Shown piece by piece: positions 6,618 to 27,691 of a stretch of DNA of 35,717 nt; position 1 is the first letter of the stretch; the number at the start of each line of letters is the position of its first letter. Source of the stretch: a virus. Made by a program: the position numbers and the translations under genes. The stretch is from IMG/VR virus record IMGVR_UViG_3300006099_000051; one strand, written 5' to 3'. Below the pieces are notes generated by a model. The model made no database searches. It saw nothing but the letters and a program-made list of their open reading frames with translations, and had not been told where the DNA came from.

Positions 6618-6620
6618 ATA

Positions 6621-7457: not shown

Positions 7458-7466
7458 GAGGGGATT

Positions 7467-9855: not shown

Positions 9856-9889
9856 GTTTCATCTTTTGTTTTGACTGAGAGGAGCGGAG

Positions 9890-10144: not shown

Positions 10145-10145
10145 T

Positions 10146-10475
10146 TTGTATATTCCTATCGGTATATTAGTGTTGTTGGCTTTAGTTTTTCTCTCTTTTG
10201 ATGATTTTCTTGTGCTCTTAACTATTTTTGTTTTTGGGTGGTTACTTATTTATATGTGGCCATTAGCTCTAATTTTGTTGATTTGGTTTGTAGTAGGTAT
10301 AATGCTTGATAAGCTAAATATAATAATTGAAAAAGCGACTAAAAAAATAAATGAATTTTTAAGTTATCATAATAAGTTAAGAAAATTTGTAAGTTTTATT
10401 ACAAATAATTTTTTAATTTTAGTTGTTGGAATATTTTTTCTTTTTGTTTGGGGAATGGTCCTATTTGATAATTAA
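10146..10475 (+). CDS. Small polytopic membrane protein (moron)
   Basis: TTG start immediately after the upstream stop. About three hydrophobic segments. The DNA is very AT-rich compared with the rest of the genome. Confidence 0.6.
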   Translation: MYIPIGILVLLALVFLSFDDFLVLLTIFVFGWLLIYMWPLALILLIWFVVGIMLDKLNIIIEKATKKINEFLSYHNKLRKFVSFITNNFLILVVGIFFLFVWGMVLFDN

Positions 10476-10581
10476 TTGACTTTTAACTAATACAATATTA
10501 TTATAAAAGTATAGGGATTGAAACCCCTTCCATGAGCGGAAACGCTAGCCGAAATTGAGCGATTTTTTATTTTAAATTATT

Positions 10582-10667
10582 GTTGCGGATAGTGCGAATA
10601 TATTGAATAAGCATAAGTGACTTATGGCACTGTTTCAATATCCGCAACACCTTGAAAATTGAAACAG
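10582..10667 (+). promoter_or_regulatory. Nested, mutually exclusive inverted repeats in the leader of the Bro/antirepressor-like gene
   Basis: GTTGCGGATA (10582-10591) pairs with TATCCGCAAC (10639-10648). CTGTTTCAAT (10630-10639) pairs with ATTGAAACAG (10658-10667), which abuts the AGGAG Shine-Dalgarno. There is a perfect 15-bp palindrome CATAAGTgACTTATG at 10612-10626. Confidence 0.6.
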
Positions 10668-10678
10668 GAGACCATAAG

Positions 10679-11317
10679 ATGACAAATTTAGTGCATTTTA
10701 ACAACCATAATATTGAGTTAATTCAGTATAATAATCAGCCGTATATGACACTCCGCCAAATCGGTGGTGCGCTAGAATATGCCCGTCCGGATAAAATATC
10801 CACAATATACAATGAACACAAATCTGAATTTGATGAAGAAATGTCTTGTCTTGTTCGTAGAGGCAATACAAGAGTTCGGATTTTCAACCGAGAGGGTGCT
10901 TGGCTGATTGGTATGTTTGCTCGTACTCCTAAGGCCGCAGAGTTTCGGCGTTGGGTTCTTAAAGTTTTGGGGACAACGATAGATAAAGTTTATCCCTGCG
11001 GGGAAGTTAATGTGCGGGAGCATACCCGCTCTTTGCTGAGCGGTAAGAAAGAGATTGTGCTTTCTGAAAAAGCCAAGACTGAAATCGGCGGGATTGTTAA
11101 ATCTTGTATGGCCGCGGCGATTCGCGAAGAGTTGGCTGATTTGCTGGATTTTACGCAAGTTAAGGGGCAAGAACTGTCAGACAGCAATTTGATTTATCTG
11201 CTTTATCGTTGGCATTCAACGAAGAGTGAAGTTGATTTGAAGAAATTTCAGCAGGTGACTTCGGAAAATCAGGCGTTAAAAATTAAATTGGCGAAAATTA
11301 AACAGGCTGTTGCTTAA
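10679..11317 (+). CDS. Bro-N / P22-antirepressor-N-terminal-like protein (putative antirepressor)
   Basis: RBS aggag upstream of the ATG at 10679. NIELIQYNNQPYMTLRQIGGALEY...REGAWLIGMFARTPKAAEFRRWVLKVL resembles Bro-N/Ant N-terminal domains. Confidence 0.6.
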   Translation: MTNLVHFNNHNIELIQYNNQPYMTLRQIGGALEYARPDKISTIYNEHKSEFDEEMSCLVRRGNTRVRIFNREGAWLIGMFARTPKAAEFRRWVLKVLGTTIDKVYPCGEVNVREHTRSLLSGKKEIVLSEKAKTEIGGIVKSCMAAAIREELADLLDFTQVKGQELSDSNLIYLLYRWHSTKSEVDLKKFQQVTSENQALKIKLAKIKQAVA

Positions 11318-11346
11318 CTGGATTATATTTTCAATTAAAAAAATGC

Positions 11347-11386
11347 TTGACTTTATCCACAAGGTAAAGTAATGTTTTTTTATAGT
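11347..11386 (+). promoter_or_regulatory. Late promoter, copy A
   Basis: TTGACT (11347-11352), 17 nt, TAATGT (11370-11375), 5 nt, TATAGT (11381-11386). Near-identical to 32153-32192. Confidence 0.65.
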
Positions 11387-11438
11387 GAAAAACTGTAACT
11401 GATTAGTTGCAGTTTGACGCCTTTTCTATTTGCTAAAA

Positions 11439-11468
11439 ACCGCTTTGCGTTGCAAGGCGGTTTTTTTT
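11439..11468 (+). terminator. Intrinsic terminator in the leader downstream of late promoter copy A
   Basis: accgctttgc-gtt-gcaaggcggt forms a 10-bp stem, followed by T8. It lies directly upstream of the fibre gene RBS aagggagg. Confidence 0.85.
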
Positions 11469-11485
11469 GTTGTAAGGGAGGAATT

Positions 11486-11848
11486 ATGCCGTTTGACAGT
11501 GAGGGGATATATACCCGTTTTCATAACTGGGAAGAAGACCGGGAGAATGACATCGATATTGTGACCGATCATGCGGATGAAGAGGACAATGGGTTTGCTG
11601 ATGGGTTGTCATTGACATTTTTACGGGATGGACGCGTACCTATGCAGGGTGCTATTGATATGGCACAAAATAAAATCAAAAACTTGGCGGATGGGACAGA
11701 GGATGGTGATGCAGTGAATCGTGGGCAATTGGTTGAGGCTGCCGAACAAATAGACGCCAAGGCTGCCGTTGTGGCAGATAAGTTTAAGGCGGTGGAAACT
11801 TTGCCGGAAGAAACGGATGCGGAAACTTTTTATTTTGTATTTGAGTGA
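11486..11848 (+). CDS. Tail-fibre N-terminal (anchor) module, short paralogue (120 aa)
   Basis: The ATG at 11486 follows RBS aagggagg. MPFDSEGIYTRFHNWEEDR...EEDNGFADGLSLTFLRDGR...DAVNRGQL is paralogous to the N-terminus of the next gene. It ends with ETLPEETDAETFYFVFE. Confidence 0.75.
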   Translation: MPFDSEGIYTRFHNWEEDRENDIDIVTDHADEEDNGFADGLSLTFLRDGRVPMQGAIDMAQNKIKNLADGTEDGDAVNRGQLVEAAEQIDAKAAVVADKFKAVETLPEETDAETFYFVFE

Positions 11849-11859
11849 TGAGGGCGGAT

Positions 11860-12873
11860 ATGGCGTTTGACAGCGAGGGGATTTATCATCGTTTGCATAA
11901 CTGGACGGAAGACAGGTTGAGCGGGATAAATAAGAAAATTCAAGCGGCGCGCATGGATGAGGAAGACAACGGATTTGCTGCCGCATTGTCGCAGACGTTT
12001 CTGCGTGACGGGCGGGCAGAGATGGAAAATCCGTTAAACTTGGCAGAACATAAAATTTTTAATCTGGCTCGAGGGGCTTTGGACAGTGATGCCGTTAATC
12101 GAAAACAGCTGAACGAGGCGGTTAAAAAAGCCGATGACGCGTTAAAAAAAATAGCGGAATCCTTTGTGATTGTGGAAACGCTGCCTGCCAAACCGGTTGA
12201 CAGCGTTTTTTATTTTACTGCAGAAAAGCGTTTATACAAGGGCAGCCGCCGGATTATTGAAGTGTATTACAGCAATACGGCTTTAACTCCGATTGAGGTT
12301 TTGCACATATATAAAGGTTCGCAAATAGTTTATAAAGCTGAAGCTTATGAACCGGGAACTGTTTTGATTAAGCAAGCCGGAGCTTATACTTATAAGGCTA
12401 AGCTTCCTAAAGGGGTTTTTAAAATTTGTATTGCCAGTGCCGGGGGGACAGGGACAGTTTGGGTTGCCAATGCAATGGGCTATGCTAACAGCGGCGGTTC
12501 AGGTGCAGCGGTAGAGATAACCATTTTTAATCCTAAGGCGCAAGAATTGGAAATTTATGCCCCTCCGGGATTATCCGGTTATGGCTCACAAACCGGCGGT
12601 GATGCTTATTTGAAGATAGCCGGTGTAGAAATAGCTAGGGCGAAAGGTGGTATTGGTTCAGGAAGTGGCGGGACGTATAGTGTCAATAGTTCTGCCGAGG
12701 AGGTTGAGATTCTGAAGATTGACGGGAAAAACGGAAACGGCAGCCGCACTGGATTTTCCGGAAGTGTGCGCGTGGCTTCGGTGTCGCCTTATGATGATTG
12801 GGGTTGGGCAAATGAGTCGTCATCTGGTGCTGGAGGGATGCGTGTGGAATATATGAAATATAAAAAGGAGTGA
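11860..12873 (+). CDS. Tail fibre protein (anchor domain, short shaft, Gly-rich C-terminal domain)
   Basis: MAFDSEGIYHRLHNWTEDR...EEDNGFAAALSQTFLRDGR...DAVNRKQL, with an internal ETLPAKPVDSVFYFTAE. The C-terminal Gly-rich domain is similar to the C-terminus of 13927..15846. Confidence 0.8.
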   Translation: MAFDSEGIYHRLHNWTEDRLSGINKKIQAARMDEEDNGFAAALSQTFLRDGRAEMENPLNLAEHKIFNLARGALDSDAVNRKQLNEAVKKADDALKKIAESFVIVETLPAKPVDSVFYFTAEKRLYKGSRRIIEVYYSNTALTPIEVLHIYKGSQIVYKAEAYEPGTVLIKQAGAYTYKAKLPKGVFKICIASAGGTGTVWVANAMGYANSGGSGAAVEITIFNPKAQELEIYAPPGLSGYGSQTGGDAYLKIAGVEIARAKGGIGSGSGGTYSVNSSAEEVEILKIDGKNGNGSRTGFSGSVRVASVSPYDDWGWANESSSGAGGMRVEYMKYKKE

Positions 12874-12877
12874 TAGT

Positions 12878-13228
12878 ATGGCAGGAGTGATGACGCCGGC
12901 GGGGATTACAATTCGCCGCGGGGATAGTTTTGATATTCTGATGAATTTCAAAGCCGGCAATAAAAATTTTGATTTGACCGAATGTCAGCTCAAGATGACA
13001 GTGCGGGACAGCGACAATAACGAATTGTTCAGCAAAGAAGGGGAAATTATCTCTGCTGCGGCCGGTACGGCGCGGATTAAGCTAACTCCCGCAGAAACAG
13101 ATGCGAATCCGGGAAATTATCAAACCGACATTCAAATTATTTTTAAAAACGGGGATGTTCACACAATTTATCCGCAAAACGTCAATGCGGTGGCTTATTT
13201 TAAACTGACGCCGGAGGTGACGTTATGA
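12878..13228 (+). CDS. Small beta-rich fibre-cluster protein (116 aa)
   Basis: RBS aaaaaggag. ITIRRGDSFDILMNF...LKMTVRD...ARIKLTPAETD...YQTDIQI looks like an Ig-like sandwich pattern. The function is not identified. Confidence 0.6.
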   Translation: MAGVMTPAGITIRRGDSFDILMNFKAGNKNFDLTECQLKMTVRDSDNNELFSKEGEIISAAAGTARIKLTPAETDANPGNYQTDIQIIFKNGDVHTIYPQNVNAVAYFKLTPEVTL

Positions 13229-13917
13229 CGGTTGTGAACGAAGAAAGCACCTTGGTGGTGTTTGATGGTTTTGAACGCCAACAGTTGGAAGTGATGTTTC
13301 AGGATGAAGTGGTTCTGGATATTGAAGTGCCATTGTTTTACATCAAATCCGGTGAAGAAGAAATAAAGCATTATGTTAATACGGTGGCGAAACCCGATAT
13401 TAATCTTTTTACGGATGGCAAAAAAGCGGAATTGGATGCTGTTTCAGCCGATGAACAGAAAGAGATTGAAGAATATTCAGCCGGAAGGCAGCAGATTATT
13501 GAAAACAGTTTGGATAACTATGCCGCCGGTATTCGGACAGAGCTTGACAATTATGTCGAGGAAACGATTAAACCGGATTTAAATGTGCATGAGGCAGAGC
13601 TGAAAGCGGAATTTGATACTAATGCCGCTGAAAAAACGGCGAGTTTTAATGCTAATGCCGCTGAAAAGCAGACGGAAGTTAATGCTTTGGCAATTCAGGC
13701 GGCGGCTTCTGCCTCTGCGGCAGCGGAGGCAGCAACTGAGGCGGCGGAAAGTGCGACAGCGGCGGAAGGGTTTGCTTCAGCTGCGGCGGTTTCGGCAACT
13801 GAGGCGGCCAGTTCGGCGGCTCAGGCGCAAACGGTGTTAAACCGGGTGACTTGGGTTGTGGGGGCAGAATTGCCAACAGAACCGGTAATTGGGACAATGT
13901 ATTTTATATATGAATAG
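13225..13917 (+). CDS. Tail fibre shaft protein
   Basis: ATGA overlap with the upstream gene. Ala/Ser/Glu-rich helical repeats (AAASASAAAEAATEAAESATAAEGFASAAAVSATEAASSAAQA). It ends with ELPTEPVIGTMYFIYE. Confidence 0.75.
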   Translation: MTVVNEESTLVVFDGFERQQLEVMFQDEVVLDIEVPLFYIKSGEEEIKHYVNTVAKPDINLFTDGKKAELDAVSADEQKEIEEYSAGRQQIIENSLDNYAAGIRTELDNYVEETIKPDLNVHEAELKAEFDTNAAEKTASFNANAAEKQTEVNALAIQAAASASAAAEAATEAAESATAAEGFASAAAVSATEAASSAAQAQTVLNRVTWVVGAELPTEPVIGTMYFIYE

Positions 13918-13926
13918 GGGCAAAAT

Positions 13927-15846
13927 ATGCCAGTATATCACGAAAACAGCCAAATTCGCGAAGTGGGGGAAAACGGGGTATATTTTTGCCCGGGGAAGAG
14001 TAATTGTCTGACAGATGTGCCTAAAAACATTCATTTAGAGTTTGAATGGGGAGATTGGGAGAATCCCGCTTTATATGTGGATAAGATTGGTGATGCCGGG
14101 GGAAATCTTTACGCTGTTCGAGCCAGTTCTACCTACCCAGGTCACGATGCAAGAAAAGCTTTTGACTGGCAGAATGGTAAAGATGATATATGGGAGGCGG
14201 CAAGCAGGACTTTAAATGATTGGCTGGAGTTTTACGCACCTTTTCCGGTCAAGTTAAATTACATTCATTTTACAAATCGTCCAGGTTATGTTACTGGATA
14301 TAGCGTTGTGAGGTTGACGGCATCTAATGACGGGGTCAATTATGTGGAATTAAAACAGTTTCCGTATACTTTAGGAAATTCTTCCCAGTGGGATATTCAG
14401 GTGAATTCTAATGTTGGATATAAGTATTTTCGTTTGTCGGCGGGAGATGGTGCAACGCTTATTGGTGACGGTGATGCTAAATTTGCCTTTGGTGAGGTTC
14501 ATTTGGTGGGGCAGGCTAAAAATGTCCTCACTCTTAAAGCTGGAAGCAAAATCTACTGGCCGGATGGGCGGTCGATAGTGTTAGGACAGGATCTGGCGAA
14601 TGATAATTTATTAACATCCGGAGATTTAATGTTTTTGTGTTACACTCCGACACATCCAGAAAGTAATCAAAAGAATATTAATTATATACTTAATTCTAAT
14701 CATTACACGCAGACAACGCCACCAGCGACAGGTTCAGTGTTTAACCCAGACACTAAGAGGATAGATTATTATAACAATAGTGTGATATCTGTGACGGATT
14801 ACAGTTTGCCGTTTTGTTCAGTAACAAACACTAACGGTGTTGTGCAGATTGTTGATGTTTTTGATTGGTTTGTGCCGCTAAAAAAGAGTTTGTTTCTTTT
14901 GCCCGAGGTTAAGTATTTGAGTGCTAATGGTACTGTTGAAAATCTTTATCAAAATGAAGAAAATGAAATAACCGAACTGTTGTATAATGAAGGAACTTGG
15001 ACAACTGGTGAAAATTTTGAACTGTTTGTTCATTCAAACAATATCTGGTATAATTTTAATAATTATACACAAAAAGATATGCCTTTAAATAATGCTTATT
15101 CATCATGGTATAATCCAGCAACTAATAAGCTTTTATATAACAGCTCCGCAGATAATGTCAAAGATATATCTGAATGGGTGGAGCGGCGAAACTTTTTAGC
15201 TTTGGGCGCGTTTGATTTAGATAGTAATAAAGGGATTTCTAAAGTGCATTTGAAAGAGGTGCAGGAGGCTAACAGTTTGCTACCTGTTCATGAGATTTAT
15301 TGTGGCAATCAGTTGGTGTATGATTTTCAGGTTTATACTCCGGGGGATATATTGGGTGAGATTGCCAATCCGGGTGATGGGGCAAACAATGTTTTTTATG
15401 TCGATATGCCTAAGCCCGGCGTCTTAAAATATTGGGGCGTTGGTGGTGGTAATGGTAATACTTGGTGCTATATCGGCTGTAATTATGCTGGTTCGGCAGC
15501 GGGATTTATCGGTAAATTGTATTTTAATAGAAAATGTCGGCTGCGTGTTATTGTCGGTCGTAATCATGAAGCCAGCCAGTTGGCTGTTGCGGAGTGGGGA
15601 ACGGAGGATTGGACAACATTGATCCAATGTAATTACGGGGCTAATGCTGGTGGCGGTGGTGGCGGCAGCGGTGGTTCTGTTTACGTCAATCGTGACAGTA
15701 CATTTAATACCTTTTTTGATATAGAACTTGAACGAAACGGCTATGGCGGAAGTAATTCAACATATGGCGGTTCTGTTTGGAATGGTTATGGACGTGCCGG
15801 CACAAACGGTTATGGCAAACTTGAGTATGTGAGGAAAGAGCAATGA
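13927..15846 (+). CDS. Tail fibre / receptor-binding protein with a discoidin-like domain and a Gly-rich C-terminal domain
   Basis: 639 aa. AVRASSTYPGHDARKAFDWQ...WLEFYAPFPVKLNYIHFTNR...RLTASNDGVNYVEL...YKYFRLSA is F5/8-type-C-like. The C-terminus (GVGGGNGNTW...GGGGGGSGGS...GYGKLEYV) is paralogous to that of 11860..12873. Confidence 0.75.
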   Translation: MPVYHENSQIREVGENGVYFCPGKSNCLTDVPKNIHLEFEWGDWENPALYVDKIGDAGGNLYAVRASSTYPGHDARKAFDWQNGKDDIWEAASRTLNDWLEFYAPFPVKLNYIHFTNRPGYVTGYSVVRLTASNDGVNYVELKQFPYTLGNSSQWDIQVNSNVGYKYFRLSAGDGATLIGDGDAKFAFGEVHLVGQAKNVLTLKAGSKIYWPDGRSIVLGQDLANDNLLTSGDLMFLCYTPTHPESNQKNINYILNSNHYTQTTPPATGSVFNPDTKRIDYYNNSVISVTDYSLPFCSVTNTNGVVQIVDVFDWFVPLKKSLFLLPEVKYLSANGTVENLYQNEENEITELLYNEGTWTTGENFELFVHSNNIWYNFNNYTQKDMPLNNAYSSWYNPATNKLLYNSSADNVKDISEWVERRNFLALGAFDLDSNKGISKVHLKEVQEANSLLPVHEIYCGNQLVYDFQVYTPGDILGEIANPGDGANNVFYVDMPKPGVLKYWGVGGGNGNTWCYIGCNYAGSAAGFIGKLYFNRKCRLRVIVGRNHEASQLAVAEWGTEDWTTLIQCNYGANAGGGGGGSGGSVYVNRDSTFNTFFDIELERNGYGGSNSTYGGSVWNGYGRAGTNGYGKLEYVRKEQ

Positions 15847-16256
15847 ATGCGGAAAATTTAATTAAAAAATATACACCGGTTTATTTAAAGGCGCATCCAT
15901 GTCTTTGTGGCTATTGGGTTATCAGTTATTGGCTACGGTTTTATCCTGACAGCGGCAAAGCTGTGCAGCCGGGGGATGAGATGACACTTGATGAGGCTGA
16001 TGAGCTTTTACGTCAACATCTTGATAAGCTGGAACTGCCCGAGCGTCGGTGGTTGCCTAACGGGGAGTGGCCAAATAATCAGCGGGAAGCTTTAAAATCA
16101 ATCATGCATTATTTGCAGGAGGATTGGGCTGGCTCGGAATTAAAGCACGCGCTGGAAGCCGGTGATTGGGCTGTTGCAAAGGAACTTTGGCTTAATCTCG
16201 GCATGCCGGAATGGCGGCAGGAAGAGGTAGAGCTGTTCTTCGGGGCTGCCGGATAA
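15843..16256 (+). CDS. GH24 lysozyme-like protein lacking the catalytic signature
   Basis: ATGA overlap with the fibre gene. The GYWVISYW...MTLDEADELLRQHL...NQREALKSIMHYL...LEAGDW...EEVELF spacing mirrors phage lysozymes, but the E/D/T catalytic positions are replaced. Confidence 0.5.
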   Translation: MNAENLIKKYTPVYLKAHPCLCGYWVISYWLRFYPDSGKAVQPGDEMTLDEADELLRQHLDKLELPERRWLPNGEWPNNQREALKSIMHYLQEDWAGSELKHALEAGDWAVAKELWLNLGMPEWRQEEVELFFGAAG

Positions 16257-16328
16257 TTATTATAAACGCCTATCGACAACGACTATCTGAGACTATCAAT
16301 AATAATCAATGCTTGGGAGCTGTAAACG

Positions 16329-16589
16329 ATGGCTAAAATAACAGGCGAGTTGCGGAAGCTCGGGAAAAAAAATCCAGAATTATTGTTGCAAAAACTCGAG
16401 GCGGTGGAACTTACTGACCTCGAGTTTCTTATTATGAGGCTTCGTTATATTGACGGGTTGGTATTTAAACAGATACCGGACATTGCCGGCGTATCGGAGC
16501 GGTGGGTTTATAAAGTGCATAAAAAGGCTGCTCAAAAGACAGCTGCCAGTATAAAATTGGCGGAATGGCTGGCTTTAACCGGACGGTAA
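16329..16589 (+). CDS. Small sigma-70 region-4-like HTH protein
   Basis: 86 aa. LTDLEFLIMRLRYIDGLVFKQIPDIAGVSERWVYKVHKKAAQK resembles sigma region 4 / LuxR-type HTH. Confidence 0.55.
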   Translation: MAKITGELRKLGKKNPELLLQKLEAVELTDLEFLIMRLRYIDGLVFKQIPDIAGVSERWVYKVHKKAAQKTAASIKLAEWLALTGR

Positions 16590-16643
16590 AAGGACAGTTC
16601 TAAGCCATTATGTCGGCGATTCCTTATCGCTATCCTGAAAAGG

Positions 16644-16667
16644 TAAGCAATGGTGCTTATTTTTTTT
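16644..16667 (+). terminator. Intrinsic terminator
   Basis: taagca-atgg-tgctta stem-loop followed by T8. Confidence 0.6.
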
Positions 16668-16679
16668 AGGAGAAAAAGT

Positions 16680-17366
16680 ATGGGAATTGAATTTAATGCA
16701 TCCAATGCCGGTTCGATGGCTTGGAAAGGCTTTAACACCCTGCTCGGCGCTGCCGGTACTGCTATGGGCGCAACAGCTTTGGGTTCAAAGACCAGCGAAG
16801 AAAAAGTTCGTGAAATTTTTCGCGAAGAAGTTGGCCGTTATGGCGGATATGGCCGTTCGGTAAATGATACTGTGGTTATTTCTCAGCCATGTTCTGAAAA
16901 TACTCACGTTACTCGTTTTGAGCTGGAACAGTCTCAACGCATTTCTGAACTCGAATCGTCTAAAGAGACGGATGCCAAAATTTTGGAAGTTTGGAAAGCT
17001 GCTGCTGCTTCAGACCAACGTCAGGATGAAAAATTTGCGCAACTGACAAAATCGCTGACTGATTATGTGATTGCCAATAATCGCGAAGTTGACGCGATTA
17101 GATGCGATGCTCGTTTGAACAATCAGGAAATCAGAGATAATCTGCGTTTCTTGGACTACAAGATTGATAATAATCAGCGCGAAATGTATGCGTATGTTGA
17201 TTGCAAGACTCTGCCGCTTGAGAAAAAGCTGCCGTTGTCTTCAATCTGTCCGCAGCCGATGCCCGGATGTGTACCTGTCGGTTTCGAAGGGCAAGTTGTT
17301 AATACAACTGCAACCGGTGAGACCAACACGGTTATTTCCGCTAATAAGGCTGCTGCACCTAAATAA
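16680..17366 (+). CDS. Hypothetical protein with an N-terminal glycine-zipper-like hydrophobic segment, a central coiled coil and a Cys/Pro-containing C-terminus
   Basis: RBS aggagaaaaagt upstream of the ATG at 16680. LLGAAGTAMGATALG, then long helical Q/E/R-rich segments. No family recognised. Confidence 0.65.
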   Translation: MGIEFNASNAGSMAWKGFNTLLGAAGTAMGATALGSKTSEEKVREIFREEVGRYGGYGRSVNDTVVISQPCSENTHVTRFELEQSQRISELESSKETDAKILEVWKAAAASDQRQDEKFAQLTKSLTDYVIANNREVDAIRCDARLNNQEIRDNLRFLDYKIDNNQREMYAYVDCKTLPLEKKLPLSSICPQPMPGCVPVGFEGQVVNTTATGETNTVISANKAAAPK

Positions 17367-17416
17367 CCTACAGAGCGGGCGGTTGCAGACAGTGCCGTCC
17401 GCTCTCCAAACGGAGA

Positions 17417-17755
17417 ATGAACATGAAAATTAGCCTAGAAAATGCCGTCAAGGCAACGAGCGAATATCTTAACAAAGAGTTTTCGGCAATGGGTGAGGAC
17501 AAAGACAAGAGATGGGCAGCGTTTGGAATGCATATGATCGCTGAATACAAGATGGCGACAGCCGGCACTAAAGCTTTAAAAATGCTGGATGATGGCACGG
17601 GATTTATTGATTTAGACGTTTTGGACGGCTTTATCGGTAAATATGCTGCGGATTTGCCTGACAAAAGTTTTGCTACTCTTTTGGGCGAAATAAAGATTAA
17701 AGCTGATACCCCGGCTGAATATTTGGAACATCTTAAAAAATACGGAGAAAATTAA
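17417..17755 (+). CDS. Hypothetical protein (112 aa)
   Basis: RBS acggaga. ORF with normal codon usage. No motif recognised. Confidence 0.6.
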   Translation: MNMKISLENAVKATSEYLNKEFSAMGEDKDKRWAAFGMHMIAEYKMATAGTKALKMLDDGTGFIDLDVLDGFIGKYAADLPDKSFATLLGEIKIKADTPAEYLEHLKKYGEN

Positions 17756-17952
17756 TGATGGACGTTAAAGTTGAAGAATTGCATGCCGAGCTGCATAAAG
17801 GCGTAAAAATGATTGTTGATGCTCTTGGTGATATGTGTCAACAGGAAAATGTTCCGGCTTCGTTCATGATGGATATGTCGGGTATTCTTAAAGACATGAG
17901 TAAGGTGGAAAAGAATTTGGCCGAAGCGGCATATTATGCCCGCAAAGCGTAA
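17755..17952 (+). CDS. Hypothetical protein (65 aa)
   Basis: TAATG start-stop overlap with the upstream gene. Predicted helical. Confidence 0.55.
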   Translation: MMDVKVEELHAELHKGVKMIVDALGDMCQQENVPASFMMDMSGILKDMSKVEKNLAEAAYYARKA

Positions 17953-17972
17953 TTATTATGGTTTGGACTAAC

Positions 17973-17997
17973 AGCCCGCAAGTATGCGGGCTTTTTT
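17973..17997 (+). terminator. Intrinsic terminator upstream of the lysis cassette
   Basis: agcccgca-agta-tgcgggct stem-loop followed by T6. Confidence 0.85.
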
Positions 17998-18010
17998 ATT
18001 GGAGTAAGCA

Positions 18011-18295
18011 ATGGACTATTTGGCTTTATTTGTTTCATTTTGTGCGGGAATTTGGAATGTGCTGCAAGATACGTCAAAATTAATTTCGAGAAAAGTATGC
18101 GCCTTTATGTTAGGCGCTATTTTTTGTTACGGCGCGGTTAAAATTGCCAGTTCTTACGGCTTGTCGCATGAAGCTGCAGCCTGTGTGGGGTATTTCTTGG
18201 GCGTATTGAGCATAACCATCTATGACGTCACTGTGCAGTGTTTGCATAAAATTCCCGTGATTTTTGAAAAAAGAATGGGAGGTAAACATGATTGA
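18011..18295 (+). CDS. Holin (about 3 TM)
   Basis: 94 aa with three hydrophobic segments and a charged C-terminus. It lies immediately upstream of, and overlaps, the endolysin gene. Confidence 0.7.
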   Translation: MDYLALFVSFCAGIWNVLQDTSKLISRKVCAFMLGAIFCYGAVKIASSYGLSHEAAACVGYFLGVLSITIYDVTVQCLHKIPVIFEKRMGGKHD

Positions 18296-18758
18296 TATGA
18301 GCGAAGCCGTGCAGCGTTTGACGTTGCACGAGGGAATCCGTTTGCAGCCTTATCGCTGTCCTAAGGGATATTTGACAATCGGGGTCGGTCGAAATTTAGA
18401 TACGAATCCGCTGACGCCGGAAGAAAAAAGGCTGTGCGGCGATTATATGCACGGAATTATTAAAGAGCAGGCTTTTTATTTGCTACGCAATGATATTCGC
18501 CGGGTGGTTAAAGAATGTGAGCAACATATTCCATTTTGGAATGAGTTGGATGACGAGCGACAATATGCGCTAGTTGATATGGCGTTTAATCTGGGCATAA
18601 AGGGATTGCTGGGGTTTAAGAAAATGCTGAGTTATTTAGGCGTTGGCAATTATATCAAAGCCGCTGCGGAATGTTTGGCATCGCGTTATGCCAAAGAAGT
18701 TGGACGGCGCGCCGTCAGAATCTCAGAAATTATCCGGACCGGCAAATTTAAGCTATGA
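18288..18758 (+). CDS. Endolysin, GH24 (T4-type) lysozyme
   Basis: RBS gggagg upstream of the ATG at 18288. LHEGIRLQPYRCPKGYLTIGVGRNL...RQYALVDMAFNLG carries the E...D...T lysozyme signature. Confidence 0.9.
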   Translation: MIDMSEAVQRLTLHEGIRLQPYRCPKGYLTIGVGRNLDTNPLTPEEKRLCGDYMHGIIKEQAFYLLRNDIRRVVKECEQHIPFWNELDDERQYALVDMAFNLGIKGLLGFKKMLSYLGVGNYIKAAAECLASRYAKEVGRRAVRISEIIRTGKFKL

Positions 18759-18768
18759 GGAGAGGAGT

Positions 18769-18987
18769 ATGGCTCATATTGTGCTTCGTTTGCTTGTTTG
18801 TAGTTTTATTCTGCTTGGAGCTTTTGGCTGCGGTTATTCTATTGGCCGCAGCCGGGCCGTTGTAAAAGAAATTGAAAAACGGGTGGAGGTGATTAAATAT
18901 GTGGAAAAGCAAAAGGCGGCTATTCATGCGAAGCCTAACGCTGGCCGCGATGAGCTGCTTAGCCTCATGCGCGCAGGTAAATTCTGA
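18769..18987 (+). CDS. i-spanin (Rz-like)
   Basis: RBS gaggagaggag upstream of the ATG at 18769. N-terminal TM LRLLVCSFILLGAFG, then a charged helical periplasmic part. Confidence 0.75.
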   Translation: MAHIVLRLLVCSFILLGAFGCGYSIGRSRAVVKEIEKRVEVIKYVEKQKAAIHAKPNAGRDELLSLMRAGKF

Positions 18988-19126
18988 TTACTGCCCGGTT
19001 TATCCGGTTGCCGGCGAGGCTGTGGCGGCGGAACTGGAAAAGGCCAACTATTCGGAATTTCCGAACACTTGGGAATGGCTGGGAAGAATTGATAAATTGA
19101 GGCAGGAGTTAGAGCTGTGTAAATAA
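18899..19126 (+). CDS. o-spanin (Rz1-like lipoprotein), overlapping the i-spanin gene
   Basis: Signal peptide with lipobox LASC. Short Pro-containing mature part. It starts inside the i-spanin gene in another frame. An alternative start is at 18926. Confidence 0.75.
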   Translation: MWKSKRRLFMRSLTLAAMSCLASCAQVNSDYCPVYPVAGEAVAAELEKANYSEFPNTWEWLGRIDKLRQELELCK

Positions 19127-19149
19127 TTTTATTTTTTTTGAAAAAAACA

Positions 19150-19178
19150 TTGACATTAATGATACTTTAAGGTATCAT
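19150..19178 (+). promoter_or_regulatory. Strong sigma70 promoter with an overlapping palindromic operator
   Basis: TTGACA (19150-19155), 17 nt, TATCAT (19173-19178). The inverted repeat ATGATAC-n6-GTATCAT (19159-19178) covers the spacer and the -10. Confidence 0.7.
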
Positions 19179-19234
19179 ATGTGTATAAGGAAGCCAGAGG
19201 GGCAAACCTTTTATAATCTAGAGGAGATTTTCAA

Positions 19235-19513
19235 ATGAAACTTTTTGATGGCGAAGAAATCGTTTACAGCATTTATGATCGTGCAGCCAATGAAGTTTGG
19301 TCTGTTTCTTATAAAACTTATGAAGCCGCCGAAGCTGAAGTCCAACAATATATCAAAGATGAAGTAGCTGGCGTACGCGAGCAAGATTATTCTGATATTG
19401 AAGAATTTGAAGAGGCAAAAGCCAATTTACAGGAAAGCCTTGAGTCTGATATTGAAATTTTTGAAGAGGGTGAATTTACTGCGTTAGGACGTGGTAATAA
19501 AATTAAGGAATAA
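19235..19513 (+). CDS. Small, strongly acidic protein (92 aa)
   Basis: RBS gaggag. About a quarter of the residues are D/E (EEFEEAKANLQESLESDIEIFEEGEF). No family recognised. Confidence 0.7.
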   Translation: MKLFDGEEIVYSIYDRAANEVWSVSYKTYEAAEAEVQQYIKDEVAGVREQDYSDIEEFEEAKANLQESLESDIEIFEEGEFTALGRGNKIKE

Positions 19514-19515
19514 CT

Positions 19516-19872
19516 ATGCGCGGTTATTTATCAGGAACAGAATATCGCGCCATCCGTGAAAGTTTGGGATTGACACAGGCAGAAGCCGCGGCTCTTCATG
19601 GACTTAAAGGTGTATTGACTATCAAACGCTGGGAAGCCGGGCGGAGCTATATATCAAAAGCTGCTTGTGATAAAATAGTGTCATTGTGCCGAAAATTTTA
19701 TACAGAGCAGGAAGAGCTATTTCGTTCTTTGAGAAAAAAAGAGGAGGAGATTGTTTTAACATTTCCTCCAGCGGGCGGGGATTTTATGGCTTCTCTTGAA
19801 AGAACAAAAATCAAAAATTTATATGTCCGTCTTAGATCTGAAGGGTATTGCGTGAGATTGGTAAAGTCTTAA
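19516..19872 (+). CDS. XRE-type HTH regulator (118 aa)
   Basis: LSGTEYRAIRESLGLTQAEAAALHGL...TIKRWEAGRSYISKAA is a typical HTH_XRE N-terminus. It starts 2 nt after the upstream stop. Confidence 0.75.
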   Translation: MRGYLSGTEYRAIRESLGLTQAEAAALHGLKGVLTIKRWEAGRSYISKAACDKIVSLCRKFYTEQEELFRSLRKKEEEIVLTFPPAGGDFMASLERTKIKNLYVRLRSEGYCVRLVKS

Positions 19873-19893
19873 TTTGCACAAAATTTGCACAAA
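19873..19893 (+). repeat. Tandem TTTGCACAAA repeats (putative integrase arm-type sites, left of the attP core)
   Basis: TTTGCACAAA at 19873-19882 and 19884-19893. The same TTGCACAA core occurs twice at 20107-20125. Confidence 0.6.
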
Positions 19894-19955
19894 GAACGAG
19901 GGATTTTGCTTTAATATATTGATAATAAATGATTAAATTCTCTGTGATTATAGTT

Positions 19956-20000
19956 CTGAAAATCCTCGTGTCGGCGGTTCGATCCCGTCCCCGAGCACCA
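19956..20000 (+). other. attP core: 3' half of a tRNA-Phe(GAA) gene (anticodon loop to CCA), not a complete tRNA
   Basis: CTGAAAATCCTCGTGTCGGCGGTTCGATCCCGTCCCCGAGCACCA parses as anticodon loop/stem, variable loop GTGTC, T-arm GGCGG-TTCGATC-CCGTC and acceptor 3' strand plus ACCA. No matching 5' half lies upstream. Confidence 0.8.
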
Positions 20001-20003
20001 TCT

Positions 20004-20029
20004 AAAAGCCTTGGTTTTCCAAGGCTTTT
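20004..20029 (+). terminator. Intrinsic terminator following the tRNA fragment
   Basis: aaaagccttgg-tttt-ccaaggctttt is a perfect 11-bp stem. Confidence 0.8.
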
Positions 20030-20106
20030 ATTGTATCTAAATGATAGCGGAGGTTTTTTTGTAAATGTTGTTTTGGGGCAAAAAATGCCGAGTCTTTTTG
20101 TTAAAG

Positions 20107-20125
20107 TTGCACAATTTTTGCACAA
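20107..20125 (+). repeat. TTGCACAA repeats (putative integrase arm-type sites, right of the attP core)
   Basis: TTGCACAA at 20107-20114 and 20118-20125, in the same orientation as the left pair. Confidence 0.6.
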
Positions 20126-20139
20126 AAACGAATCTGGTA

Positions 20140-21219
20140 TTAATCGATGAAAACTGAATCTAGTGCTTGACGTTTTTCATCGTCAAGCGTGTGCGCATAC
20201 TTTAATGTTGTATTGATATTAGCATGGCCTAAAAGTTCTTTTGTCGTTCTTAGATTTTTTGTTTTGCGCAAAACCCAAGTTGCAAAAGTATGGCGTAGTG
20301 TATGAAAGTTTGTGTAAGGCAAGGTTGGATCTTTCAATTCCCTACTAAAAGATTTTCTTGTGTTTCTTTTATAGAAAATATTGCGCCAAGCAGTAGAGAT
20401 GCTTTTGATTGGTTTATTTTTATAGTTAAAAACATAGTTATTAATTTTGGGTTGATTTTCAAGGATCGCCATTAAAGGCTTGGCAATTGGCATTGTGTGG
20501 ATTTTTCCTCCGGATTTTGTGGAATCCTTGACTTTCAATGTTATTTGTCCGGTGTTAAAATCTATTTCTGACCATTTAAGATTAAGGATGTTACTTTCGC
20601 GAAATCCTGTATAGAGTGCCGTATATATAATTGGCTTTAAATGATCCGCAGCTTTATCTATTATTCTTTGAGCATAATTCCAATCTTTCAGATATTTGAT
20701 ATTTTCAGCAGGTTCTTTAAGTTTAAATTTTGAAAGCCTGATGGGGTAAGTTTTTACTTTCCATTCTTCGTTTGCGGTTCTTAAAACGGCGGAAAGAAGG
20801 TAAAGATAGCGGTTTATTGTGGAATTGCTTAGTGTGCCGCGATTTTGAGTAATGAAGCTGTTTATTTGCAGTTCGGTAATTTCGTGTAAATAGTATATTT
20901 TTAAATCATGTTTGAGTTTTGATAAGCGGCTTAATCTTTGTTGGGGGAGAGTTAGATATTGGCCTTTTTCCTGAAAATAACGGGCAAACGCCTCGTCAAT
21001 GGTTATGCAGGGCAATTCACCATTGGCTTGTTGACGAGCTTTCTTTTGCAATTGCGCAATTCTCTTGATGCAATATTGGATTGCTTTTGCTTCATCCGTT
21101 GTTCGAGTAGTCTCTCTAAACTGTATTCTGGCTCCGTTTTCGTCAATATACGAGATATAGGCATGGTAGATGTCGCCTCTTTTGAACAATCTATATGGTT
21201 CGTTGTGTCGTTTTGCCAT
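20140..21219 (-). CDS. int: Tyrosine integrase
   Basis: 359 aa. The C-terminus HTLRHTFATWVL...LLGHANINTTLKYAH carries the R..HxxR..Y catalytic pattern. It is adjacent to the tRNA-derived attP. Confidence 0.95.
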   Translation of the reverse strand: MAKRHNEPYRLFKRGDIYHAYISYIDENGARIQFRETTRTTDEAKAIQYCIKRIAQLQKKARQQANGELPCITIDEAFARYFQEKGQYLTLPQQRLSRLSKLKHDLKIYYLHEITELQINSFITQNRGTLSNSTINRYLYLLSAVLRTANEEWKVKTYPIRLSKFKLKEPAENIKYLKDWNYAQRIIDKAADHLKPIIYTALYTGFRESNILNLKWSEIDFNTGQITLKVKDSTKSGGKIHTMPIAKPLMAILENQPKINNYVFNYKNKPIKSISTAWRNIFYKRNTRKSFSRELKDPTLPYTNFHTLRHTFATWVLRKTKNLRTTKELLGHANINTTLKYAHTLDDEKRQALDSVFID

Positions 21220-21389
21220 TTATCTAAACACCAGACGGGATAAAATTTTTTGCGCCCAATGAGTTTATATTCAATATCACCATTTTGGACGGCTTTTTCA
21301 AAGGAATAACGCGGAATACCAAGATAAGCCTGTGCTTCTTTAGCGTTTAAGACTCTCTTTATATTATTTTGACAAGTTTGTCGAATCAT
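21003..21389 (-). CDS. xis: Excisionase-type HTH protein (ORF extends 217 nt into int)
   Basis: LNAKEAQAYLGIPRYSFEKAVQNGDIEYKLIGRKKFYPVWCLDKW resembles the Xis/AlpA (HTH_17) family. It lies directly upstream of int. Confidence 0.7.
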   Translation of the reverse strand: MIRQTCQNNIKRVLNAKEAQAYLGIPRYSFEKAVQNGDIEYKLIGRKKFYPVWCLDKWQNDTTNHIDCSKEATSTMPISRILTKTEPEYSLERLLEQRMKQKQSNIASRELRNCKRKLVNKPMVNCPA

Positions 21390-25381: not shown

Positions 25382-25981
25382 TTTAAAAATCCATACATCC
25401 AATTTCTTATTGATTTGATTTAGCCATTTTTTTTGTGATTCTGTTGGTGTTGGTGAATGGGCGTGGATGGTAAGGCCGACTATCATATCGGCTAATTGGA
25501 TAAGGCGGTTATTTTTAGAATCTTCGTATTTTATTTTTGCTACATTGTTGCCTGCTTGAGAACGAATATAGTTAATAAGTTCAGTTTTAACTGAATCTTT
25601 TTTGCCGTCTAATTTTACAGAGGCGTTATTTAGTCTAGCGTGAGTTAAAACCTGTTTGAGGAAAAAGTTATAAAATTTATTAGCGTTACTGCGCAATTCT
25701 GAGCTGTTTACGAGTTTTTTGTTTACATAGAGGATTTTTGCGCGGAAATGACAGGCAGATATTTCTTGAAAAAATATATCTTTTACGCGATTGCAAGTTT
25801 TTGAGTATTTGAATTCAGAAAGGTGTCTTGCTTGTGTTGCAATGTGATTTATGGTTAATTCAGTATCCTCGGCATCCTTGGAATCTTCAAATATGATTAG
25901 GGCAAAAGCAAAGTTTTGCGAGGAATTTGCTTTAAATCCAGGATCGCCGCTTTCATCTATAAAAACTAATTGCTTAGTCAT
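25379..25981 (-). CDS. DUF3800 domain protein, translationally coupled to the repressor gene
   Basis: The N-terminus LVFIDESGDPGF and the C-terminal LIQLADMIVG match the DUF3800 pattern. Its ATG overlaps the cI stop (TAATG). Confidence 0.75.
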   Translation of the reverse strand: MTKQLVFIDESGDPGFKANSSQNFAFALIIFEDSKDAEDTELTINHIATQARHLSEFKYSKTCNRVKDIFFQEISACHFRAKILYVNKKLVNSSELRSNANKFYNFFLKQVLTHARLNNASVKLDGKKDSVKTELINYIRSQAGNNVAKIKYEDSKNNRLIQLADMIVGLTIHAHSPTPTESQKKWLNQINKKLDVWIFK

Positions 25982-26733
25982 TATCCTACCTTTTCCGCTT
26001 TAAGTGTGTAAATAATGCGGCCGAGAATGATAATATCTGATAATTTGGCATTTTCGTCTTTATAGTGCTGGTTGTCAGATAGAATTCTTATGGTGTTGGG
26101 TTCGGCGGAGCCTTGCAGGCGTTTGACGGCCAAGCCGGTGGAAAGGTGCAACAAATATATGCCGTCTGATTCCGGTGCGCGGCGCGAGGTATCTGTCAGC
26201 ACCCAGTCGCCGTCTTTTAAGGTTGGTTCCATGCTGTCGCCGCAGATGCGCAGCATTTTTATTTTGTCAGGCGTAGATGTATGAGAAATTGTGCGGAAAT
26301 CTTCGGTCGATATAATCCATTGGCCGGAGACGTTTTCGGAAAAGTTGTCAATCCCGTTGCCACAACAGGCGGTAACGTCCAGAATATCAATGGCGATATT
26401 GTCGGCAGGGGCTTTTTTGAAGAAGGAAGAAACGGTGTTGACGATTTTTTCGGCCGCGGCGGTGGTACCGGAAGTCGGAAGAGATAATGAGATTTTATCA
26501 GCTTTTCCCAAATTGTACGCGGTTAATTCACCTAAATCTAGGTTAAAAAATTTTGCAATATTATAAAGTTTGCTGGAAGGAATGTCTCTTTTATTGGATA
26601 ACAATTCAGAAACGCGTGCTTGATTCCAGTCAACTTTTTCCGCAAATTCTGCCTGGCTTATTTTGCGCTGCGTTAATATGTCATTCATCCATTGCCATTT
26701 ATTCATTGTTTTTTTTTGCCTCTTTTTATACAT
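25981..26733 (-). CDS. cI: CI/LexA-type repressor (HTH_XRE + S24 peptidase)
   Basis: ISQAEFAEKVDWNQARVSELLSNKR is the HTH. GDSMEPTLKDGDW...GLAVKRL is the S24 Ser/Lys signature. The start is at 26733 (possibly leaderless) or 26706. The track ORF upstream of these starts is non-coding. Confidence 0.9.
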   Translation of the reverse strand: MYKKRQKKTMNKWQWMNDILTQRKISQAEFAEKVDWNQARVSELLSNKRDIPSSKLYNIAKFFNLDLGELTAYNLGKADKISLSLPTSGTTAAAEKIVNTVSSFFKKAPADNIAIDILDVTACCGNGIDNFSENVSGQWIISTEDFRTISHTSTPDKIKMLRICGDSMEPTLKDGDWVLTDTSRRAPESDGIYLLHLSTGLAVKRLQGSAEPNTIRILSDNQHYKDENAKLSDIIILGRIIYTLKAEKVG

Positions 26734-26740
26734 ATTGTGT

Positions 26741-26768
26741 ATAATATCACATTTTTTTTGTTTGTAAA
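26741..26768 (-). promoter_or_regulatory. PRM-like repressor-maintenance promoter
   Basis: On the minus strand: TTTACA (26768-26763), 16 nt, TGaTATTAT (26749-26741). The ATG at 26733 lies about 8 nt after the -10, so the transcript may be leaderless. Confidence 0.5.
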
Positions 26769-26782
26769 ATGCATAAAATGAA

Positions 26783-26812
26783 TTGACATTATTCGTTTTG
26801 TGAATATATATA
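26783..26812 (+). promoter_or_regulatory. PR-like early-right promoter with an embedded operator
   Basis: TTGACA (26783-26788), immediately followed by TTATTC-n6-TGAATA (26789-26806) and a TATATA -10 region. cro starts at 26831. Confidence 0.75.
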
Positions 26813-26830
26813 AATGGTAGGAGGTGCAAA

Positions 26831-27028
26831 ATGCAAATACGAGCCAATAAAATTATAGAAGAATTTGGAGGAGTTTGTCGAATGGCAAAAGCTCTTGGTA
26901 TTTGGCCGAGTGTTGTGCAGGGGTGGAAAAATCGAAATAAGATTCCGATTTGGCGAATGTCTGTAATTTTATCCAAAGCAGCTGAAATGAATATTGATTT
27001 GGCTGATATAGATGATGGAGAGGAATAG
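26831..27028 (+). CDS. cro: Cro-like small HTH regulator
   Basis: 65 aa. FGGVCRMAKALGIWPSVVQGWKNRNKIP resembles Cro/YdaS-type HTH. RBS ggaggtg. Divergent from cI. Confidence 0.8.
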   Translation: MQIRANKIIEEFGGVCRMAKALGIWPSVVQGWKNRNKIPIWRMSVILSKAAEMNIDLADIDDGEE

Positions 27029-27691
27029 ATGGATATTTCGTCTCTGGAAAACAAAATTATCAATGCAGATTGTCTGGATATTCTTAAACAGCTGCCGGAT
27101 AAGTGCGTTGATTTAGTGCTGACTGACCCGCCGTATGGGATAGGTAATAAATTTACATCGGAATATGGTTTACAAGTTCAGAAAAGCAAGAGGGGGAGTT
27201 TTTCTTGGAATGATGCAATTCCATCCAAAGAAATTTTTGACGAAATTAAACGTGTTTCAAGGAATCAAATAATATTTGGCGGTAATTATTTTACAGAATA
27301 TTTGAAGCCGACAAATTCATGGCTGATTTGGGATAAGGTGGGGGAATATAATTTAAAGAATCCTTTTTCCGATTGTGAATTAGCATGGACAAGTTTTAAA
27401 AAGCCGATGCGCAAATATACGATTGTTAATATGGGGTTTATTTCCCAATCTGAAGAAAAAGGTAAAAGAATTCATCCGACTCAAAAGCCATTAAAGCTCT
27501 TTCAGAAAATTTTATCTGATTTCAGCAAGGAAAATGACCTTGTTCTTGATTGTTTTTCCGGTTCGGGGACGACAGCGGTGGCGTGTCATAAGCTAAAACG
27601 GCGGTTTATTTGTATTGAAAAAGATTTTGACTACTGGAAGTCCAGCGTTGCCCGGCTGGATGAGGTTCAGAGGCAGGGCAGTTTGTTTTAA
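27029..27691 (+). CDS. DNA methyltransferase, N6-adenine/N4-cytosine type (beta class), orphan
   Basis: LVLTDPPYG (motif IV) precedes VLDCFSGSGTTAVA (motif I). HPTQKPLKL is also present. No adjacent endonuclease. Confidence 0.9.
   Translation: MDISSLENKIINADCLDILKQLPDKCVDLVLTDPPYGIGNKFTSEYGLQVQKSKRGSFSWNDAIPSKEIFDEIKRVSRNQIIFGGNYFTEYLKPTNSWLIWDKVGEYNLKNPFSDCELAWTSFKKPMRKYTIVNMGFISQSEEKGKRIHPTQKPLKLFQKILSDFSKENDLVLDCFSGSGTTAVACHKLKRRFICIEKDFDYWKSSVARLDEVQRQGSLF

Follow-up and report, generated by a model that had tools for sequence, protein, structure and literature searches.

A putative acr-aca-type two-gene cassette next to attP in a temperate phage

Results

Organization of the locus

The IMG/VR virus record IMGVR_UViG_3300006099_000051 is a stretch of 35,717 nucleotides (referred to below as the window). 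Between its lysis genes and its phage attachment site, attP, lies a short unit of two open reading frames (ORFs), ORF1 and ORF2, behind a promoter that is overlapped by a palindrome. A first-pass annotation of the window had likened this unit to an anti-CRISPR (acr) operon that is autoregulated by an Aca protein. In our assessment the chances are about even (roughly 0.5) that the unit is a self-contained, mobile cassette of the acr-aca type, with ORF1 as an inhibitor of host defence and ORF2 as an autorepressor. The features of the locus, in window coordinates, are as follows.

19132-19147, plus strand: A/T tract T8-G-A7 just 5' of the -35 element, read from the sequence
19150-19178, plus strand: sigma-70-type promoter TTGACA-17-TATCAT (score 11/12; kept in nine loci)
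19159-19178, no strand: predicted operator, a palindrome (ATGATAC-N6-GTATCAT) that overlaps spacer and -10 element
19185-19234, plus strand: predicted 5' untranslated region (UTR), its start placed from the position of the -10 element
19235-19513, plus strand: ORF1, 92 residues, candidate effector (from ORF coordinates and computed charge)
19516-19872, plus strand: ORF2, basic helix-turn-helix (HTH) protein of 118 residues, Aca2_YdiL family, candidate autorepressor
19873-20125: attP region, with arm repeats, a tRNA-Phe 3' core and a terminator

The promoter consists of the -35 element TTGACA (19150-19155), a 17-nt spacer and the -10 element TATCAT (19173-19178). Two sites scoring at least 11/12 were found in the 35.7-kb window, against 0.67 expected from Markov simulations, and only the site at 19150-19178 has a perfect -35 element with 17-nt spacing. 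The palindrome is made up of ATGATAC (19159-19165), the spacer TTTAAG and GTATCAT (19172-19178), and it extends to 10+10 nt with 90% complementarity. Among random 35-nt segments, about 1% contain a perfect inverted repeat of 7 nt whose loop is 10 nt or less. Promoter and palindrome are real and too rare to be ascribed to chance. The exact palindrome occurs once in the window; since it is found nowhere else in the phage, the regulator appears to serve no operon but its own. A search of the rest of the phage for a second operator gave only sites with two or three mismatches, a result consistent with chance. One such operator-like sequence with two mismatches, ATGATGCTTTGCTTTATCAT (9767-9786), lies in the intergenic region 9688-9889, 5' of a terminator-like hairpin; the number of near-matches of this kind is within chance expectation.

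The A/T tract upstream of the -35 element may serve as an UP-element-like enhancer of the promoter. It is kept in all loci with an ORF2-type (Aca2-type) regulator, and a similar tract, TTTTTTGAAAAAA, precedes the -35 element in L111 and L125, two loci with a ribbon-helix-helix (RHH)-type regulator that are described below. A Shine-Dalgarno sequence, GAGGAG (19221-19226), is present 8 nt 5' of ORF1. A structured RNA in the 5' UTR, considered by analogy with the RNA binding of Aca2, was not supported (fold z = -0.23; no Rfam match). ORF2 starts 2 nt after the stop codon of ORF1. A ribosome-binding site for ORF2, AAGGA, precedes its ATG by 6 nt and falls within the 3' end of ORF1; translation of ORF2 is probably coupled to that of ORF1. 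The stop codon of ORF2 directly abuts the first attP arm repeat. The first terminator 3' of the operon is found at 20003-20030, just past the tRNA core, and would also end the operon transcript.

The first-pass annotation had described the promoter with its palindrome over spacer and -10, a strongly acidic 92-residue protein followed 2 nt later by a 118-residue HTH protein, and a position between the lysis genes and attP. All three descriptions held when the coordinates and the charge of ORF1 were computed: the Rz/Rz1-like ORFs of the lysis cluster end at 19126 and the first arm repeat begins at 19873.

Operator conservation across related loci

The exact pattern ATGATAC-N(3-9)-GTATCAT was found 5' of an ORF1 homologue in ten related loci, and the only other fetched locus that carried it was a host locus (L008). 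When the promoters of nine loci were aligned, the half-sites were seen to be kept, with one mismatch in L115 that recurs in L133, while the operator spacer varied (TTTAAG, TATAAG, TTTAAT, TTTTG, TTTTAA). Variation was also seen in the bases that separate the -35 element from the left half-site and in those that follow the -10 element.

Nucleotide identity across the loci ranged from 85.6 to 96% for the promoter plus UTR, from 70 to 91% for the flanking Rz1 tail and from 75 to 99% for ORF2, and the 50-nt UTR remained 88-100% identical across loci where ORF2 falls to 75%. In the most diverged loci the corresponding values were 85.6% (promoter plus UTR), 92% (UTR alone), about 70% (Rz1 end) and about 75% (ORF2). 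Because identity in these loci is higher in the non-coding region than in the neighbouring genes, the former must be under stronger constraint. The promoter at 19150-19178 is predicted to be active. Since the half-sites are kept while the spacer varies, and since the type of repeat changes with the type of partner (see below), we infer that ORF2 binds the palindrome and represses the operon.

Mobility of the cassette and exchange of the regulator

The ORF1-ORF2 module, together with its promoter, is 96% identical to that of another phage, L003. L003, compared over its positions 1-18408, has an unrelated structural module (Baseplate_J, sheath initiator) and lacks the integrase region and the attP core of the window. 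The homology starts in the spanin genes, at 18844, and stops just before the attP core, at 19913. What L003 shares with the window at 96% identity is the spanin end, the cassette and the P-arm of attP, to which patches of early genes are added, with a mosaic junction at window positions 19913 and 22139.

In L133 the module is found at the end of an integrated prophage, against the 3' end of a different tRNA, and in L123 it abuts yet another tRNA-like end. Two more distant branches of the ORF1 family are named here after their members P0011 and P0012. In the P0011 branch, whose prophages were found on contigs 100-190 kb long, a plus-strand cassette separates the minus-strand terminase gene from the early genes. 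In the P0012 branch the cassette marks the end of a Mu-like prophage and immediately follows an orphan Dam-type methyltransferase gene (Pfam MethyltransfD12). The pair of P0012 and methyltransferase genes at the Mu-like prophage end was observed in L125 (7054-7893) and in L126-L130, next to the host genes gyrB, rpsB and tsf, and it looks like a small anti-restriction or anti-defence island. In all, the number of unrelated prophage contexts in which the cassette was present is at least three: the two just named, and that of the last operon before attP, in phages that differ in their structural modules and in the tRNA of their att site. Judged from these arrangements, it behaves as a horizontally mobile moron.

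In the P0011 and P0012 branches the overlapping downstream gene encodes a basic RHH-like protein of 57-62 residues, which replaces the HTH protein. These genes share the motif GGxRxGxGRKP...YSFYLTxEQ and are located as follows.

L109, 6285-6458: RHH-like gene
L111, 6285-6458: RHH-like gene
L125, 8335-8523: RHH-like gene

The RHH-like proteins of the two branches are 60% identical and have a strand-helix-helix pattern; their matches to Pfam RHH_7 are below threshold (E = 0.003-0.015). The promoters of these branches carry other inverted repeats, for example one with 21-nt arms flanking the -35 element in L125. A further branch, that of P0005, has a solo ORF1 homologue with no downstream gene, and a terminator follows its stop codon. 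The palindrome of its promoter, ATAACAT/ATGTTAT, occupies the spacer/-10 position, which may point to control in trans. The contigs L001 (at 1511-1589) and L002, which represent the solo homologue in two different samples, both end in a perfect tandem repeat of 28 nt, ATCGTGCCGGAGTGTTCAACGCCGCCGA, in at least 2.8 copies and with no spacers. This repeat may be what stopped both assemblies.

ORF2, the candidate regulator

A search with Aca profile models, suggested by the first-pass annotation, was positive. ORF2 (isoelectric point, pI, 9.6) matched Pfam PF08965, Aca2_YdiL, with 29.3 bits against a gathering cut-off of 23.8 (E = 1.1e-6). The match spans residues 7-92 of ORF2 and profile positions 3-89 of 118, and so reaches beyond the HTH. 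Pfam HTH_3 was matched with 26.0 bits (cut-off 23), and the homologues P0006, P0007 and P0009 carry a precomputed Aca2_YdiL match too. By its sequence, ORF2 is a member of the Aca2_YdiL family. Aca2 itself has a two-part fold, with an N-terminal HTH and a C-terminal dimerization part (alpha1-6, beta1-2; PMC8434428).

Among solved structures, the best match of the ORF2 HTH (residues 9-44), obtained with the family profile, was Aca3 (PDB 9vt3, E = 5e-4). Aca3 of Neisseria meningitidis shares with ORF2 the HTH, including the RWEA motif in the recognition helix; it differs in having 76 residues and in lacking the C-terminal half of ORF2, and the match is confined to the HTH.

Matches to MqsA models were also obtained below threshold: Pfam MqsA_antitoxin with E = 1.3e-3, and TIGR03830 with 32.9 bits against a cut-off of 61.8. 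They cover the HTH part of the models only (TIGR03830 63-116 of 127; Pfam MqsA_antitoxin 71-113 of 131), and the zinc-binding N-terminal domain of MqsA is absent from ORF2. These matches agree with the published resemblance of the Aca2 HTH to that of MqsA (PMC6765145).

The homologues of ORF2 form only five clusters, of 74-97% identity. In all five, and in the loci found, the upstream gene was always a member of the ORF1 family. No relative of ORF2 was found by a pattern scan of IMG/VR.

ORF1, the candidate effector

ORF1 contains 25 aspartate and glutamate residues (27%) against 9 lysine and arginine residues, giving a pI of 4.16 and a net charge of -16. It has no membrane or signal features and is soluble. 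A word-indexed search gave five ORF1 clusters, and only two further real relatives, P0011 and P0012, emerged when 1.84 billion representatives were searched exhaustively with HMMER. Three more loci of the family, from human gut, were found by a metagenome scan.

The family has about ten members, and the net charge is between -15 and -21 in all of them. They share the core motif (E)xVYSIxD-x4-EVWSxSYxTxEAAE ... EIFEE-x6-9-RGN, and the acidic helical parts are variable. In a form of 118 residues the central helix is missing, and an acidic extension is found at the N terminus instead. The charge is retained in the family despite replacement or relocation of the helical region. The idea that the 118-residue variants arose by internal domain duplication was not supported, as an E of only 0.21 was obtained when their N-terminal extension was compared with ORF1 by BLASTP.

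A structure prediction for ORF1, also among the checks proposed at first pass, gave a confident model and no relative of its fold. The AlphaFold2 model, built on an alignment of eight sequences, has the order beta-beta-alpha-alpha-beta-alpha-beta, with a predicted local distance difference test score (pLDDT) of 91.6 and a predicted template modelling score of 0.77. A first run with six close homologues had given an all-helical model with a pLDDT of 58.8, which was discarded; addition of the two distant members from the HMMER search raised the pLDDT to 91.6 and changed the fold. Nothing significant was obtained when the model was searched with Foldseek, the best hits being E = 2.2 in the PDB and E = 0.028 in BFVD, where the proteins hit are uncharacterised. 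Weak Foldseek matches, together with a superficial likeness of VYSIYD...EVWSVSY, had raised the idea of a GIY-YIG/I-TevI relationship. These matches were not significant (E 0.4-6, template modelling scores 0.36-0.41), and the idea was rejected; nor are the first tyrosines invariant, and helix 1 has no conserved arginine.

ORF1 had no match in Pfam, PHROGs, NCBIfam or PDB sequences. The proposed search of an anti-defence database was negative too, with no PADLOC match. No relatives were detected by tblastn in GenBank phages and PLSDB plasmids, or by pattern scans of GTDB representative genomes and IMG/VR, and peptide strings of ORF1 and ORF2 gave nothing in the literature. So far, ORF1 is an orphan whose predicted fold has no match.

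The phage and its probable host

The window represents a complete circular genome of a temperate phage, with about 35.64 kb of unique sequence and 42.5% G+C. An exact direct repeat of 77 bp is found at its ends (1-77 and 35641-35717), which indicates a circular assembly and hence a complete genome, in which the site described here is the true attP. The gene order begins with head and other structural genes (the latter probably tail genes) and continues with the lysis cluster, the ORF1-ORF2 unit, attP and the minus-strand integrase gene. After the integrase come a leftward early operon, a CI-like repressor gene, rightward early genes and the large terminase gene. The neighbouring features referred to in this work are the following.

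18264-18758: lysozyme, in the lysis cluster (whole cluster 18264-19126)
ending at 19126: overlapping Rz/Rz1-like ORFs, in the lysis cluster
20140-21219, minus strand: tyrosine integrase (Pfam Phage_integrase, E = 2.6e-24), outside the operon and given for context
25981-27063: CI-like repressor

Over its 46 nt, the attP core (19956-20001) matches tRNA-Phe(GAA) exactly, in the 3' part of the tRNA that runs from the anticodon loop to CCA. On either side of the core is a pair of TTTGCACAA repeats (19873/19884 and 20106/20117), which are probably integrase arm sites. Exact copies of this 9-mer occur in the window only at three of the four arm sites, the copy at 20106 having one mismatch. The longest ORFs of the integrase (20140-21219) and of an HTH_17 excisionase-like protein (21003-21389, minus strand) overlap by about 217 nt in different frames; the start codon of one of them probably lies further downstream than in the mechanical ORF call. 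Two orphan DNA methyltransferase genes were noted in the rightward early region (27029-27691 and 29155-30084; PHROG E = 1e-50 and 1.3e-78), both likely to have anti-restriction functions.

An exact 38-nt fragment of the tRNA-Phe was found in 105 genome stretches. Of the 80 that were listed, 78 are labelled Alphaproteobacteria, Azospirillaceae/Azospirillum or 'proteobacterium', mostly from gut, rumen and faecal samples; the exceptions are metagenome-assembled genomes of one Lactobacillaceae and one Gastranaerophilales member. The host is therefore probably to be sought among uncultured gut Alphaproteobacteria. A Pasteurellaceae or Neisseria host, considered at first, was discarded, as the uptake signal sequence (USS) of Haemophilus/Pasteurellaceae and the DNA uptake sequence of Neisseriaceae are absent, save for one chance copy of the Apl-type USS.

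No representative genome shared phage sequence beyond the tRNA, and a comparison of the 105 host tRNA-Phe loci with the phage gave, outside the tRNA core, only scattered chance matches of 18-19 nt. All fetched loci were scanned for CRISPR arrays and none was found; a literature search on CRISPR in this host group returned nothing, and neither a CRISPR-Cas system nor a self-targeting spacer could be linked to the host.

Discussion

The unit studied here has the architecture described for acr-aca operons: a mobile element carries an operon in which a small gene is followed by one for a DNA-binding regulator, and the strong promoter of that operon contains an inverted repeat. If it is indeed an anti-defence cassette, host RNA polymerase would fire the very strong promoter (UP-like tract, consensus -35, 17-nt spacer, TATCAT) on entry of the phage DNA. 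This would give a quick output of ORF1 and, by translational coupling, of ORF2. As ORF2 accumulates, its dimers would occupy the 20-bp palindrome, which overlaps spacer and -10 element, and shut the promoter. Expression would consist of a short burst, after which the lysogen keeps a steady low level. Read-through towards the integrase gene would be blocked by the terminator past the attP core. ORF1 would be the payload. It would most likely bind and neutralise a component of host immunity, be it CRISPR-Cas, restriction or another defence system, via charge mimicry of nucleic acid or direct protein binding; as far as charge alone can tell, its strong negative charge is compatible with such mimicry. 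That ORF1 is specifically an anti-CRISPR has, in our view, roughly half the probability of the anti-defence reading as such.

The closest parallel is acrIF8-aca2 of Pectobacterium phage ZF40. Aca2 is a dimeric protein of 116 residues; the inverted repeat that it binds has the core TTCG-N6-CGAA and lies in a strong promoter whose spacer is 17 nt long (PMC6765145, PMC8434428). There, as here, a small effector gene is followed by the gene for an Aca2_YdiL regulator of about 116-118 residues in a temperate phage, a strong sigma-70 promoter with 17-nt spacing is overlapped by an N6-spaced inverted repeat (IR1 in ZF40), and the predicted logic is alike, a burst followed by shut-off. The two differ in that the operator reads ATGATAC/GTATCAT here and TTCG/CGAA there, and in that neither a second repeat (IR2) nor a supported RNA structure in the 5' UTR is found here. 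In addition, ORF1 is unrelated to AcrIF8 or to any solved Acr, and the host appears to be a gut alphaproteobacterium and not a gammaproteobacterium. The exchange of regulators also has a precedent, in that RHH proteins (Aca14) can replace HTH Acas (PMC13551039). The same pattern of replacement is seen in two branches of the ORF1 family, whose RHH-like genes are not part of the window; the likeness is one of the pattern of replacement.

Several observations weigh against an acr-aca-type cassette. The half-sites of the operator differ in sequence from the canonical Aca2 half-site. No member of the ORF2 subfamily stands beside a known Acr in the five clusters and the loci found; as its partner is always of the ORF1 family, no validated Acr lends it a function by association. 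Having neither a TTCG-N6-CGAA operator nor, in these clusters and loci, a validated acr neighbour, ORF2 lacks two marks of Aca2 in the strict sense. A phmmer comparison of ORF2 with the solved Aca2 chains was insignificant (E of about 1), and its nearest annotated phage relatives (32-37% identity), in a Streptococcus phage and a Campylobacter phage, are at CI-repressor-like positions. Since the Aca2_YdiL fold family includes YdiL and SO3848, which lie outside acr loci (PMC8434428), membership of this family alone is not diagnostic. As for ORF1, its model was built on a shallow alignment of only eight sequences, and no similarity in sequence or fold to any known Acr, to Ocr or to ArdA was found in Pfam and PDB fold searches, the Acr comparison covering the families with a solved structure or a Pfam model.

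In spite of these points we favour an anti-defence cassette, because a conserved effector is moved together with a consensus-like promoter, interchangeable repressors and operators that overlap the promoter, as described for acr-aca. Of the acr-aca likeness proposed at first pass, the architecture has therefore stood, reinforced by the Aca2_YdiL match, the kept half-sites and the mobility; the function suggested for ORF1 is still a hypothesis, if a reasonable one. As for the suggestion of an Ocr/ArdA-like DNA mimic, acidic inhibitors that mimic DNA include those of the AcrIIA4 and AcrIF2 types, and with these, as with Ocr and ArdA, the ORF1 family shares small size and very high negative charge; the likeness does not extend to sequence or fold. 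It has been pointed out that less than half of the genes predicted to be controlled by Aca1/Aca2 are functionally assigned, and that the unannotated ones are anti-defence candidates (2026, PMC13551039). A wider proposal, which we put forward only tentatively, is that the ORF1 family constitutes an undescribed group of immune inhibitors with a new fold in phages of uncultured gut Alphaproteobacteria, carried on a promoter-bearing cassette that swaps repressors of the Aca2-type HTH and RHH types.

Other functions would account for part of the same evidence. ORF1 might be a moron for lysogenic conversion or superinfection exclusion, acting at a low, autoregulated level on competing phages or on host physiology and not on host immunity. 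A position at the prophage end beside att and the possession of its own promoter are typical of morons of any function, negative autoregulation would keep a steady level in lysogens, and no homology of ORF1 points to anti-defence. However, the protein is soluble and highly acidic, without membrane or signal features, and it has no match among the defence models of PADLOC; one branch is found beside an orphan methyltransferase, an anti-restriction setting, and the pairing of a burst-type consensus promoter with a repressor of its own is the signature of acr-aca (PMC6765145). We regard such a role as unlikely, though less so than the alternatives that follow. In the immI region of P22 (arc-ant), an effector and a small dedicated repressor are expressed from a strong promoter outside the main immunity region. 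An antirepressor module of this kind would match the combination of effector, RHH/HTH autoregulator and strong promoter found here. In it, ORF1 would attach to the surface by which a CI-type repressor, encoded by the phage itself or by a resident prophage, contacts DNA, and the small repressor would silence ORF1. Such a module would also suit an acidic protein, as such proteins can mimic DNA for repressors, and a phage that has a CI-like repressor (25981-27063). The likeness to immI is one of layout without homology: the gene order is reversed, the effector coming first here, unlike arc-ant. The family is spread over unrelated prophage types, which need not share a repressor, and Pfam and PHROGs revealed no similarity to Ant, Tum or other antirepressor families. 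We consider an antirepressor quite improbable.

The partner of ORF1 could itself be the target. The Neisseria DNA mimic DMP19 reportedly titrates the neighbouring HTH factor NHTF, and ORF1 might likewise titrate the co-encoded DNA-binding protein off DNA, making the pair a regulatory switch instead of a payload with its regulator. The opposite charges of the two proteins (pI 4.2 and 9.6), their translational coupling and the restriction of ORF2 to ORF1-family neighbours would all be in keeping with this. Against it, the ORF1 core is kept while the partner shifts from HTH to RHH-like or is absent, and we give it a lower probability than an antirepressor. Least probable of all, and hardly to be expected on the present evidence, is the toxin-antitoxin pair that the first-pass annotation had named as an alternative, that is, a type II system with the toxin gene first, in the style of HigBA or MqsRA, and with ORF2 as the HTH antitoxin. 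Two small coupled genes under an autoregulated palindromic promoter, and the sub-threshold matches of the ORF2 HTH to MqsA models, would fit it. But ORF1 is extremely acidic, unlike the toxins RelE, HigB and MqsR, and matches no toxin family; one homologue stands alone with its own terminator, others are paired with an unrelated RHH-like protein, and ORF2 is devoid of the zinc-binding domain of MqsA.

Uncultured gut Alphaproteobacteria are a host group for which no characterised phage-host conflict genes are known. If the wider proposal above holds, the ORF1 family would give this group its first described anti-defence protein, which might be an anti-CRISPR, and as an immune inhibitor ORF1 would bring a new fold into the anti-defence repertoire. 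Should ORF1 not act against defence, the locus would be a useful warning that a small gene, an Aca2-like HTH gene and a promoter palindrome are not specific to anti-CRISPRs. The ORF1 family offers a natural comparison, with one effector core under an Aca2-type regulator, an RHH-type regulator or no cis-encoded regulator, and such a comparison would help in studying the evolution of Aca-style control.

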